In this document: positions 30,418 to 32,988 of the stretch, piece by piece
Layout of the letters: each line of letters begins with the position of its first letter
Numbering within the stretch: the stretch's first letter is position 1
Assembly (NCBI RefSeq): GCF_053078305.1
Contig: NZ_CP166879.1
Reading direction: 5' to 3' (one strand)
Length of the DNA: 64,000 nt
Translations under genes and position numbers: made by a program
Notes under the pieces: generated by a model
Told to the model about the DNA's origin: nothing
The model's input: only the letters and a program-made list of their open reading frames with translations
Databases searched by the model: none

Positions 30418-30813
30418 ATGAATTCTCAGACAGCAAAAGATATCACCGGCTTTCGCTCTTATTTGCCAGACGCATTACGTCTAAGATTCGACGAGCAATT
30501 ATCTGTCCGGGCTATCGCCCTGCAGTTAGGTCTCAGTCATTCCACCATTCATAATCTCTTTCAACGATTTAATGCCTCCGGTATTACTTGGCCATTACCT
30601 GAATCACTTTCAGTCGCCCAACTCGATGCCATACTTTATGCCAATAGAAAGAAGGAATTACCTGATGATCCTCAAATCAGCGAAAGCACATGGCGAAAAG
30701 AACGACGAACCTCCTACAGTCGTGAATTTAAAATCAGGCTGGTAAAACTGTTTTCCCCCCTCACTCCGGAACTTCTTAGGGTGCTCATTCGCGAAATGAA
30801 AGGGGGGATCTGA
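30418..30813 (+). pseudogene. Chimeric ORF: unrelated HTH-like N-terminus fused to an internally deleted IS66 OrfA remnant
   Basis: Residues ~95-115 (RRTSYSREFKIRLVKL) and the last ~15 residues (PELLRVLIREM) parallel OrfA at 51264-51689 (RRSFSNEFKLQMVKL … PELLTVLIREL); the middle of OrfA is missing and the first ~90 aa are unrelated. Confidence 0.45.
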
Positions 30814-31160
30814 TGATAACGCTGCCGACCGGTACCAAAATCTGGATCATCGCTGGCATCACAGATATGCGTTGTGGCTTCAACGGCCTGGCTTCGAAGG
30901 TGCAGAACACGCTGAAAGATGACCCGTTCTCCGGGCATATCTTCGTCTTCCGGGGCCGCAGTGGCAAAATGGTGAAAATACTGTGGGCCGATCGTGACGG
31001 GTTATGCCTGTTCTCCAAACGCCTGGAACGGGGCCGCTTCGTCTGGCCGGTAACCCGGGAAGGGAAAGTGCACCTGACGCCAGCTCAGTTATCCATGCTA
31101 CTGGAGGGGATCGCGTGGCAACATCCCAAACGGACAGAACGGCCTGGCATCCGGATATAA
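30813..31160 (+). CDS. IS66-family OrfB (TnpB accessory protein)
   Basis: 115 aa, clearly homologous to 51686-52036 (…TKIWIIAGITDMRCGFNGLA…FSGHIFVFRGRSGKMVKILWADRDGLCLF…). Confidence 0.8.
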   Translation: MITLPTGTKIWIIAGITDMRCGFNGLASKVQNTLKDDPFSGHIFVFRGRSGKMVKILWADRDGLCLFSKRLERGRFVWPVTREGKVHLTPAQLSMLLEGIAWQHPKRTERPGIRI

Positions 31161-31179
31161 CCCGTGATAAAACAGGGGA

Positions 31180-32376
31180 ATGAACAACACACTCCCCGAC
31201 GACATCGAGCAACTGAAGGCCCTGCTGATCGCACAGCAGGCGGTTATCGTCCGTCTGTCTGGTGAAATAACCGGCTATGCCCGCGAGATCAGCTCGCTCA
31301 GAGCGCTGGTCGCTAAACTGCAGAGAATGTTGTTCGGTCGCAGCAGCGAGAAAAGCCGCGAGAAGATAGAAAAGAAGATCGCACGGGCAGAAACGCGTAT
31401 AACCGAGCTCCAGAACAGGCTTGGTGAGGCGCAGTTGCAACTCACCTCAATGGCTGGAGAGACAGCGCCGAAAACATCAGACTCTCCCGTCCGCAAAGCA
31501 TTTCCGGCAACACTTCCCCGTGACAGGCAGGTTATCTCCCCGGCAGAAACCGAATGCCCCGTCTGCAGCGGCAAACTGAAACCGCTGGGAGAAAGCATCT
31601 CTGAACAACTGGATATCATCAACATCGCGTTCAGGGTAATCGAAACGGTTCGCCCAAAACTGGCCTGCAGCCGGTGCGACTGTATAGTTCAGGCTCCGCA
31701 GCCACCAAAACCCATCGAGCGCAGTTACGCCAGTCCGGCTCTGCTGGCCCGCATAATCATGGCGAAGTTCGCCGAGCATCTGCCGCTGTACCGTCAGTCG
31801 GAAATCTATGCCCGCCAGGGCGTGGAGCTGCACCGCAATACGATGGGGCGCTGGGTTGACATCATGGGAGAGCAGCTTCGCCCGCTGTATGATGAACTGA
31901 AGCACTATGTGCTGATGCCGGGTAAAGTGCATGCCGATGACACGCCGGTAAATGTACTGGAGCCGGGTCAGGGTAAAAACCGTACCGGACGGCTGTGGGT
32001 CTATGTTCGTGACGATCGCAACGCCGGTTCGACCATGCCGGCAGCGGTGTGGTTCTCATACTCTCCCGACCGCAAAGGTATCCACCCGCAGCAACATCTG
32101 GCGGACTACAGAGGTATCCTGCAGGCCGATGCATATGCGGGTTACAATGCTCTTTACGAAAGCGGTCAGGTAACCGAAGCGGCTTGTATGGCACATGCCC
32201 GACGCAAGATCCACGATGTACATGTCCGCCATCCAACGACAGTAACGGGAGAAGCACTCCGTCGTATCGGGGCACTGTACGCTATCGAGTCTGAGATCCG
32301 CGGCAGTCCGGCAGAAGAGCGACTGGCGGTCAGAAAAGCCAGAACGGTACCGCTAATGCAGTCGTTGTATGAGTAG
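31180..32376 (+). pseudogene. IS66-family transposase TnpC, C-terminally disrupted
   Basis: 398 aa aligns with the first ~400 aa of the 537-aa TnpC at 52067-53680; the conserved C-terminal region appears downstream in shifted frames. Confidence 0.75.
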
Positions 32377-32988
32377 CTCCAGGGGCAGATGAGCACGCTG
32401 TCGCGCCACTCGGATACGGCGAAAGCGTTCACCTATCTGCTGAAGCAATGGCTGGGTTGAGATCAACAATAACCTGTGTGAAAACGCCCTCCGGGTAGTT
32501 GCAGTGAGGCGGCGTAACTACATGTTCTCCGGCTCTGATGGTGGAGGCGACAGTGCGGCAGTGATGTACAGTGTGAAACAGTTGTTCGGAGGTTCACTGA
32601 TGCCGTGAGATTAAGATGGACAGGTTGAAGGGGCTTTAGCCATGGTACGTGCGTTGAATAAAATGACGAAGGCAGGTATGCCAGAAAGCATTTGTATCGT
32701 CTGAAAATACGATTTGCCATGTATCTATTTATACAATAAATCCAAAGAAGGATATAATACTATATGAGATATTGTATGACAGATAATATAAATTCAGATG
32801 CTGGCAACATACCAGACTACTGTCAGGTTAAGGACTGGGCATTCTGTCGATTATTTTTGTGATGTTTCTCAACTTTTTTCCATTCAAATAGTATATCACC
32901 ACAGAAAAATTTTATGTAAGCAGATAATAACTATTGGAGTTATTTATAATAATTTTGTGTTTTATTTTACTGATTTTATATAGTAAGC

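Follow-up and report, generated by a model that had tools for sequence, protein, structure and literature searches.

The closest long-TnpA IS66-family system of Enterobacteriaceae to the element described here is an unnamed 2712-bp element of E. coli 2013C-3033 (L001; TnpA WP_001562682.1), with which we group its plasmid relatives. Full-length 2712-bp copies bear target duplications, the reference copy L001 having an 8-bp duplication (TCATGAAG) on either side, and 144 plasmids contain at least 80% of the element. The closest annotated relatives are ISSfl3 and ISCro1, named by PGAP as IS66-like, which have the same three-gene layout, an inverted repeat beginning GTAAGCGC, and a long TnpA made up of an N-terminal HTH extension and an HTH_Tnp_1 domain. 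Both are nonetheless different IS species: amino-acid identity to ISCro1, whose TnpA aligns over residues 19-222, is 42% for TnpA, 81% for TnpB and 65% for TnpC, while plasmids bearing ISSfl3 are ~86% identical in nucleotide sequence along the first 1.15 kb. We take the element to be IS679-like, and Han et al. 2001 is said to be the source for that type. IS682 likewise belongs to the IS66 family and has tnpA-tnpB-tnpC between GTAAGCG termini, flanked by an 8-bp duplication, but its TnpA is short (141 aa) and without the N-terminal HTH extension, and its proteins are only 50-61% identical to those of the family considered here.

We analysed a 64,000-nt stretch of DNA (the window; w denotes a position in it, and L-numbers denote loci compared with it), in which the + strand carries an IS66-family tnpA-tnpB-tnpC array at about 30.3-32.6 kb. 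Its ORFs (30418-30813, 30813-31160 and 31180-32376) form the three consecutive genes, with stop and start codons that overlap or lie side by side, by which IS66 elements are recognised, and the array matches the profiles NF033819, NF033517, PF05717 and PF03050. The copy has the same IRL and gene order as L001, and its nucleotide identity to an intact relative is 99.5-99.8% over w30336-32451; it differs from the intact L001-type element in that 279 bp of tnpA are gone, tnpC contains a nonsense codon and a 29-bp deletion, and the last ~140 bp including the IRR have been lost, so that no target duplication is present. We consider it probable that w30336-32571 is what remains of a 2.7-kb IS66-family element of the long-TnpA subgroup, now immobile and non-autonomous, and that it is recombinant. 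The element itself is an unremarkable, probably dead example of an IS common in E. coli (IS66 family, long-TnpA type). A tRNA scan of the 64-kb window returned none.

An inverted repeat (GTAAGCGCTCCGCC) begins at w30336, precisely where the conserved E. coli backbone ends: matches to the backbone stop at w30335, abutting the IRL, with the backbone sequence at the junction running ...AACAAAAACTGGTCA into the element start GTAAGCGC. The IRL (GTAAGCGCTCCGCCTGTGACGT; w30336-30357, + strand) is the same as that of the intact copies L001 and L002 and matches the L001 IRR imperfectly. The repeat (GTAAGCGCTCCGCCTGTGACG) starts 82 bp 5' of the tnpA ATG, with the spacing of the intact copies, and the 82-bp leader is identical in the window and in those copies. 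The first-pass annotation had held that the element lacks its left end; with the IRL in place against the backbone, the missing end is instead the right one. Likewise, the extent of 30418-32640 that it gave has to be redrawn, as the decayed element on the + strand spans w30336-32571 and position 32640 falls within an adjoining IS903-like remnant. The sequence flanking the left end is ACTGGTCA, with which, the right end being absent from the window copy, no duplication can be paired.

The first gene, tnpA' (30418-30813, + strand; 131 aa), encodes a shortened version of the 224-aa TnpA found in intact copies: the HTH domain native to its N-terminus is still there, as are its last 21 aa. Residues 111-203 are missing, which removes most of the HTH_Tnp_1 domain and lowers its score from 77 bits in the intact protein to 23.4 bits. 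Alignment to L001 and L002 places the junction of this in-frame deletion (279 bp, 93 codons) at w30740-30748 (+ strand), inside a retained 9-bp direct repeat (TGGTAAAAC), confirming the internally deleted OrfA of the first-pass annotation. None of 5,426 complete E. coli genomes has this deletion, and the hybrid locus also occurs, with tnpA undeleted, in the sister assemblies L022, L025 and L028.

The ~90 residues that precede the deletion had been described as unrelated to OrfA and as a local fusion, after loss of the left end, of an IS21-like HTH fragment to the deleted OrfA. To this fusion we give next to no credence, although the short IS682 TnpA without this N-terminal domain and a weak to moderate likeness of the TnpA N-terminus to IS21-family IstA (40% identity over 55 aa in pairwise alignment; NF033546 at E=0.0036 on intact TnpA and E=0.0019 on the window ORF) speak in its favour. 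Residues 1-110 of tnpA' are 100% identical to the N-terminus of TnpA from copies that look transposition-competent and carry target duplications, and the leader and IRL upstream are those of such copies. In addition, a single curated family model covers both halves of the protein: NCBIfam NF038385 (IS66_access_TnpA; 190 positions, cutoff 150 bits) scores 287.8 bits on an intact relative (positions 1-189) and 144.3 bits on tnpA' (positions 1-100), so that the 131-aa product falls just below the cutoff because of the 93-codon deletion. Given that this model spans both halves, that full-length 2712-bp copies with target duplications encode the long protein, and that ISCro1 has the same two-part architecture, the ~90-residue HTH part is the native N-terminus of the long-TnpA subgroup, a fixed feature and not a locally acquired foreign segment.

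Of the proposed IS21 origin, the remote protein likeness stands and the DNA does not. The window contains no IS21 DNA and has no similarity to IS100 or to an ISSso4-like element, and a domain search for the IstA rve/DDE core and IstB that mark IS21 elements found neither rve nor IstB domains. The N-terminal domain of long IS66 TnpA proteins nevertheless appears to be truly homologous to that of some IS21-family IstA proteins, a reading that we regard as safer than the possible in-trans activity discussed below, and such homology would imply an ancient domain exchange between the two IS families. A literature search whose coverage lay outside the key IS66 papers returned no description of IS66/IS21 exchange or of an IS21-like domain in long TnpA.

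The second gene, tnpB (30813-31160, + strand; 115 aa), is intact; its start overlaps the tnpA' stop (TGATG), its product is 100% identical to L001 TnpB, and it scores 132 bits against PF05717 and 124.7 bits against NF033819. The disruption of tnpC reported previously is borne out by three lesions, which together leave TnpC incomplete: a premature TAG at w32374-32376 (TGG in intact copies), a frameshifting 29-bp deletion at w32444/32445 between 7-bp direct repeats GCAATGG (w32445-32451, + strand) and a 3' truncation at w32571. The 398-codon tnpC' (31180-32376, + strand) encodes LZ_Tnp_IS66, zf-IS66 and positions 1-213 of the 284 of DDE_Tnp_IS66, and lacks the remainder of the DDE domain as well as DDE_Tnp_IS66_C (PF13817). 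The 29-bp deletion is common to all old remnants (L019, L020 and L023). Beyond the TAG, w32377-32571 (+ strand) is an untranslatable 3' remainder of tnpC that belongs to the old-remnant part, and homology to intact copies ends at w32571 (position 5544 of 5712 in L001).

At this point, a three-way junction alignment shows tnpC fused to an IS903-like (IS5 family) 3' remnant at the microhomology GATGTAC(A)G (w32563-32571), and it is through this fusion that the right end of the element was lost. The remnant (32563-32743, + strand) is 81.8% identical to the IS903B 3' end over the 148 bp of w32563-32710, its reading frame is broken by stop codons, and it finishes at w32743 in a degenerate IRR-like end (ATTTATACAATAAATCC) that matches at ~14 of 17 positions; it belongs to the IS903 group, and in Z1323MEC0001 PGAP annotates an IS5/IS1182 fragment at the corresponding place. 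Neither the right-end sequence of the IS66 element nor an IRR followed by ACTGGTCA was detected anywhere in the window, and no CGCTTAC motif occurs near w32571, leaving GTAAGCG at one end only. Since the right inverted repeat is gone, as are the C-terminal quarter of the TnpC DDE domain and the HTH_Tnp_1 domain of TnpA, the element is probably unable to transpose.

Sequence divergence along the element indicates that its two parts have different histories. The part before w32310 matches an active-type copy at 99.8% identity, with 1/404, 1/461, 1/500 and 1/500 differences from L001 in four bins across w30336-32200; the part beyond w32374 has exactly the sequence of an old remnant, truncated at its 5' end, which lies ahead of ibrAB in other strains, and w32445-32571 differs from L001 at 8/127 positions, six of these eight being private against all four intact copies. 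Pooled divergence is 4/2039 on the left versus 11/197 on the right (Fisher p=1.9e-9). Clustered mutation beside the two deletion junctions could have raised the divergence of the last 200 bp, but it would leave the incompatible site patterns on the two sides unaccounted for. At w32256, w32272 and w32309, the only three informative sites left of the crossover within the region common to the old remnants, the window agrees with L001 and differs from L020, L019 and L023, which agree among themselves, and from the remnant of Z1323MEC0001. At w32375, w32504 and w32507, it agrees with L020 and differs from L019, L023 and L001. The window and the Z1323MEC0001 remnant do not differ at any position from w32310 to at least w32800, a stretch that takes in the TAG, the 29-bp deletion and the junction with IS903'. 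A crossover interval is thus placed at w32310-32374 (+ strand), with 'young' L001-type sequence to its left and 'old remnant' L020-type sequence to its right.

The old remnants provide a second line of evidence. In three other contexts (L020, L019 and L023/24) they all begin at w32251, with the junction ...CCGATGCGG followed by GAAGCG, and in L019 an IS3-family insertion lies within this junction. As the truncation is common to L019 and L020, it is older than the split between them; the tree implied by the truncation is incompatible with the placement of the right part of the window copy as sister to L020, and recombination is therefore required. At least eight independent assemblies have this arrangement; they are 99.85-100% identical, and a single SNP falls within the remnant. 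Among the loci and assemblies compared, L026 is JPQG01000001.1 (JPQG being E. coli 48), and MPGR is the reindeer STEC strain 453.

These observations show that IRL, tnpA, tnpB and most of tnpC, the left ~2 kb, derive from a young active-type copy beside an aldose-1-epimerase-family gene of the deoR-rbsK-fucP island backbone. An old tnpC fragment, which was already truncated at both its 5' and 3' ends and which precedes the IS903'-ibrAB-T1SS module elsewhere, supplied the last ~200 bp, with crossing-over in the 65-bp tract w32310-32374 that is identical in both parents. We infer that the ibrAB module was joined to the backbone by homologous recombination, with either loss of the DNA between them or insertion of DNA from outside. 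The 279-bp tnpA deletion, between 9-bp repeats, followed the recombination, since the hybrid is also present in L022, L025 and L028 and tnpA is intact there; L025 has in addition an ISCro1 insertion. A 4-bp deletion in ibrA is later still, and the remnant is inherited vertically as a fixed scar in a Shiga-toxin-producing E. coli (STEC) lineage. The predicted state before recombination is a complete 2712-bp copy ending ...GCGCTTAC and followed by ACTGGTCACAATTTCAG. A complete copy at the backbone site flanked by an 8-bp duplication was found in 0 of 5,426 complete E. coli genomes, and exact-pattern scans of genome and metagenome contigs gave 0 matches for the left, tnpC-IS903' and tnpA-deletion junctions. 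In Z1323MEC0001, the 50 kb upstream of ibrAB contain no fucP backbone; iol, ireA and hemagglutinin genes occur there. The locus resembles known IS-mediated island mosaics in having a hybrid IS with two histories exactly at the boundary of two island modules; it differs from them in that one partner is merely a ~320-bp, ~5% diverged remnant, and in that the parental configurations were not recovered.

Decay in place of a single IS66-family insertion, with the old remnants elsewhere being later truncations of the window copy, would be the simplest history, and every lesion is indeed a microhomology deletion or a point mutation. We nonetheless judge it unlikely, because divergence from intact copies leaps from 0.2% to 5.6% near w32375, because site patterns on either side of the crossover tract yield incompatible trees, and because L019 shares the w32251 truncation with L020 even though L020 is nearer to the window. 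That the mosaic is an assembly chimera, mis-threaded through a repeated IS, is conceivable in so far as the crossover tract is short and lies within a repeat family; yet the assemblies that share the structure come from different projects, among them contigs of 5.5 Mb and 1.76 Mb, and the sister assemblies combine the same junctions with an intact tnpA, so the chance of such an artefact is practically nil.

A further proposal was that the decayed copy and a second, intact IS66-family homolog form a functional pair able to rearrange or mobilise the ibrAB/T1SS segment, by homologous recombination or as a composite transposon. The second copy is there as described: an intact IS682 (51178-53710, + strand; 2533 bp), outside the decayed element, starts 18.6 kb downstream of it in the same orientation, is 99.9% identical to copies that PGAP names IS682, and has IRs GTAAGCGT... 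and an 8-bp target duplication (CGTGATTG). Shared family and orientation aside, we see very little probability in the proposal. The two copies have 65.6% nucleotide identity and a longest common exact run of 14 bp, below the minimum of roughly 23-27 bp for RecA-dependent exchange; their IRs part after the initial 8 bp, GTAAGCG(C/T), and the decayed copy has no IRR. IS682 keeps its own duplication and is hence a simple later insertion, and lineage assemblies compared over the remnant and ibrAB, about 12 kb, are collinear. The pair is therefore no realistic substrate for homologous rearrangement. The copies belong to different IS species (IS679/ISSfl3/ISCro1-like versus IS682); the refuting outcome named in the first-pass annotation, that the left copy be a complete member of a different IS66 subgroup, is borne out for the subgroup and not for completeness. 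Locus L004, in which an IS682-like tnpA remnant 89% identical to w51178-51519 lies ~100 bp past the backbone, was considered as an ancestral backbone-IS682 arrangement and rejected, as its flanks differ and the remnant end is mutated, which indicates an independent insertion.

There is a slight chance that the lineage-fixed, HTH-only tnpA', translationally coupled to intact tnpB, is retained for in-trans action and is not inert debris; its products could bind or modulate the ends of other long-TnpA IS66 copies, or could influence ibrAB. The finding matters little outside annotation, which it corrects in that an N-terminal HTH is native to long IS66 TnpA and not the mark of a fusion, and in that exact limits are now given for the two IS remnants upstream of ibrAB. 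Further rearrangement of the locus through the two IS66-family copies is not likely. For this one STEC lineage, the results offer a base-pair view of how ibrAB/T1SS may have joined the deoR-rbsK-fucP island through a ~320-bp IS remnant, and the hybrid junctions can serve as markers of the lineage, as can the deletions of 279 bp in tnpA and 4 bp in ibrA.

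The ORF listing gave, all on the + strand, tnpA′ (131 aa; 30418-30813), tnpB (115 aa; 30813-31160) and tnpC′ (398 aa; 31180-32376), which NCBIfam and Pfam models identified as IS66-family genes for a partial TnpA, a complete TnpB and a truncated TnpC. TnpC′ retained LZ_Tnp_IS66, zf-IS66 and positions 1-213 of the 284 in DDE_Tnp_IS66, and the same scan found no DDE_Tnp_IS66_C in its product. This tnpA-tnpB-tnpC array, with its model matches, confirms that the decayed IS66-family element reported by the first-pass annotation is real; it is probably IS679-like. A megablast search of 5,426 complete E. 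coli genomes recovered thousands of related copies, the best relative being the 2712-bp element L001 of strain 2013C-3033 (numbered 3001-5712), which interrupts IS100, is bordered by a perfect 8-bp duplication, TCATGAAG, and has inverted repeats starting GTAAGCGC.

The first-pass annotation had the element lacking its left end, but the alignment showed the reverse. L001 3001-3404 matched 30336-30739 base by base with one mismatch, a stretch that includes the left inverted repeat (IRL) GTAAGCGCTCCGCCTGTGACG at 30336 and the 82-bp leader up to the tnpA ATG; because matches to the conserved deoR-rbsK-fucP-aldose-1-epimerase backbone stop exactly at 30335, the left end is intact. It is the right end that was lost: homology ends at 32571 (L001 5544 of 5712), the last ~140 bp including the right inverted repeat (IRR) are gone, and no right-end sequence of the element was found anywhere in the 64-kb window. 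Relative to L001, tnpA′ carries an in-frame 279-bp deletion (93 codons) flanked by imperfect direct repeats, AAATCAGG(C/TG)TGGTAAAAC, with the junction inside TGGTAAAAC (30740-30748), which removes most of HTH_Tnp_1 and lowers its score from 77 to 23.4 bits. The TnpB protein is 100% identical to that of L001, and tnpC is near-identical until a TGG>TAG change at 32374-32376; a 29-bp deletion follows at 32445, between GCAATGG repeats. At 32563-32571, the microhomology GATGTAC(A)G joins tnpC to an IS903-like remnant, in which 32563-32710 has 81.8% identity to the 3′ end of IS903B, the frame ...KQLFGGSLMP(stop)D(stop)DGQVEGALAMVRALNKMTKAGMPESICIV(stop) contains internal stops, and a degenerate IRR-like sequence ends at 32743. 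Since this fusion lies at microhomology and the other two deletions at repeats, each of the element's three deletions is a short-homology event.

The N-terminal helix-turn-helix (HTH) part of TnpA′ had been regarded as an unrelated fragment forming a chimera, a view that was not borne out. Residues 1-110 match the start of the 224-aa TnpA of intact copies at 100% identity, and the curated model NF038385 (IS66_access_TnpA, 190 positions) spans the N-terminal HTH as well as the OrfA-like half, scoring 287.8 bits on intact TnpA and 144.3 bits on TnpA′ (positions 1-100; cutoff 150); of the model, only positions 84-188 are matched by the short IS682 TnpA. With coverage of at least 80%, the element is carried by 144 Escherichia, Shigella and Salmonella plasmids, and ISCro1, a distinct IS (42%, 81% and 65% identity in TnpA, TnpB and TnpC), has the same two-part architecture, its TnpA aligning over residues 19-222. 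Because of this identity, model span, plasmid distribution and common architecture, the HTH part is native to a subgroup and no local chimera. The earlier impression of IS21 likeness has a remote basis, in that the N-terminal domain matches the IstA N-terminus of an ISSso4-like IS21-family element (40% over 55 aa; pairwise E=2e-13), but neither IS21 DNA nor rve or IstB domains were found at the element. IS100 IstA showed weak similarity to the domain, and NF033546 matched it at E=0.0036. The compared pair comprised the N-terminal ~75 aa of intact TnpA (L001 3083-3757) and IstA (locus L005, 13154-14689), and an (I/L)(T/S)WPLP motif lies within the match. These similarities suggest that an ancient DNA-binding module may be common to IS66 long TnpA and IS21-family IstA.

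Bin by bin, the window copy carried 1/404, 1/461, 1/500, 1/500, 3/244 and 8/127 substitutions against L001, with six of the last eight private relative to all four intact references; pooled, there were 4/2039 left of 32375 versus 11/197 to its right (Fisher p=1.9e-9). Among the complete genomes, Z1323MEC0001 alone (L003, fetched again as L020) has the right junction; its tnpC fragment begins at 32251. From 32310 to at least 32800 this genome equals the window, and within that stretch the two have in common the TAG, the 29-bp deletion, every private substitution and the junction with IS903′; at 32256, 32272 and 32309, in contrast, the window equals L001 and differs from Z1323MEC0001. Exact-protein look-up yielded further contexts (L019 and L023/L024) in which the old remnant has the same start junction, ...CCGATGCGG joined to GAAGCG, as well as the 29-bp deletion and the IS903′ fusion, without the TAG or the changes at 32504 and 32507. 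An IS3-family element sits in the L019 start junction, for which Z1323MEC0001 provides the corresponding empty site; this insert (L019 ~2448-5137), exactly at 32251, is itself interrupted by an IS110-family element.

The right part thus gives the tree ((window, L020), (L019, L023)), whereas at 32251-32309 the window clusters with young intact copies, apart from a group made up of L020, L019 and L023. Site patterns as incompatible as these demand recombination in the window's lineage, with a crossover inside the 65-bp identical tract 32310-32374. The truncation at 32251, common to L019 and L020, is therefore older than the ancestor of L020 and the window's right part, so that the window's left ~1.9 kb is not ancestral and was gained from a full-length copy. 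No parental arrangement predating the recombination turned up in the 5,426 complete genomes or in pattern scans of genome and metagenome contigs.

The public collection has the exact 131-aa TnpA′ in 56 blocks. All eight loci fetched carry deoR-rbsK-fucP-DUF4432 followed by tnpA′-tnpB and then ibrB, with tnpC′ and ibrA called in some, and are collinear with the window across the remnant and ibrAB (99.85-99.98% identity; a single SNP inside the remnant), an agreement that rules out an assembly artefact. JPQG01000001.1 (E. coli strain 48) is 100.000% identical to the window across 14.6 kb; MPGR is reindeer STEC strain 453. Three sister assemblies (L022, L025 and L028) have the left junction and hybrid tnpC as in the window with an intact tnpA (224 aa), so the 279-bp deletion, present in 0 of the 5,426 complete genomes, postdates the recombination. 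Further IS traffic at this spot marks other lineages: besides the L019 insertions, L025 (128-2713) has an inverted ISCro1-like copy 58 bp to the left of the IRL. A 4-bp deletion (GTTT, ~33392) splits ibrA into ORFs 32989-33417 and 33414-34214 (intact gene, 401/409 aa) and is polymorphic within the lineage, being present in the window, L012, L013, L015, L017 and L018, with ibrA intact in L011, L014 and L016.

A second IS66-family homolog does exist at 51178-53710, but the pair proposed as a substrate for rearrangement is not a realistic one. This copy is IS682 by PGAP naming, 99.9% identical to many copies, its inverted repeats read GTAAGCGTAAAC... and GTAAGCGTCAAC..., and its 8-bp duplication, CGTGATTG, is intact. 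It lies between two YadA-like trimeric autotransporter genes (49228-50970 and 53756-55021), a notable setting near ibrAB, which regulate Eib-type immunoglobulin-binding autotransporters. Its identity to the decayed copy's family is 65.6% in nucleotides and 50%, 61% and 52% in TnpA, TnpB and TnpC, with 14 bp the longest exact run in common. Efficient RecA-dependent exchange in E. coli takes roughly 23-27 bp of perfectly matched sequence and drops off sharply as divergence grows, and on that basis the pair would offer no realistic substrate for homologous exchange. A composite transposon likewise fails, as the left copy has no IRR, its transposase is dead, and the inverted repeats agree in the first 8 bp only. 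The intuition that IS66 homology drives rearrangement holds in another sense, for a past event inside the decayed copy rather than between the two.

A third remnant at 35823-36214, with tnpA and tnpB fragments containing stop codons and from a divergent subgroup (TnpB 130 aa), brings the IS66-family sequences in the window to three, not two. Strains without the ibrAB junction carry an IS682-like tnpA remnant ~100 bp past the same backbone point, after the aldose-1-epimerase-family gene (L004 10436-10778; L005 20082-20336; L006 15905-16189), with PTS ascorbate-type genes and lacI next in order; this boundary has thus been struck by IS66-family elements more than once. Downstream, a second ibrA-like gene (57848-59131; 75% nucleotide identity to ibrA) and a short stretch at ~61299-61480 that is about 72% identical to ibrB in nucleotides, on the opposite strand within ORF 61289-61918, suggest a paralogous ibrAB-like pair. 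After the T1SS genes, a 1614-aa ORF (43988-48832) contains tandem repeats of period ~1002 bp around 44477-46788, and Z1323MEC0001 sequence matches two window sites 1002 bp apart at 100% identity, suggesting a variable-copy repeat adhesin or RTX-like substrate.

The first-pass observation thus holds in part, and so does its interpretation. The object is of a known kind, a dead hybrid IS66-family remnant adjoining an IS903-like remnant, and it marks the recombination joint of two island modules in a STEC lineage.
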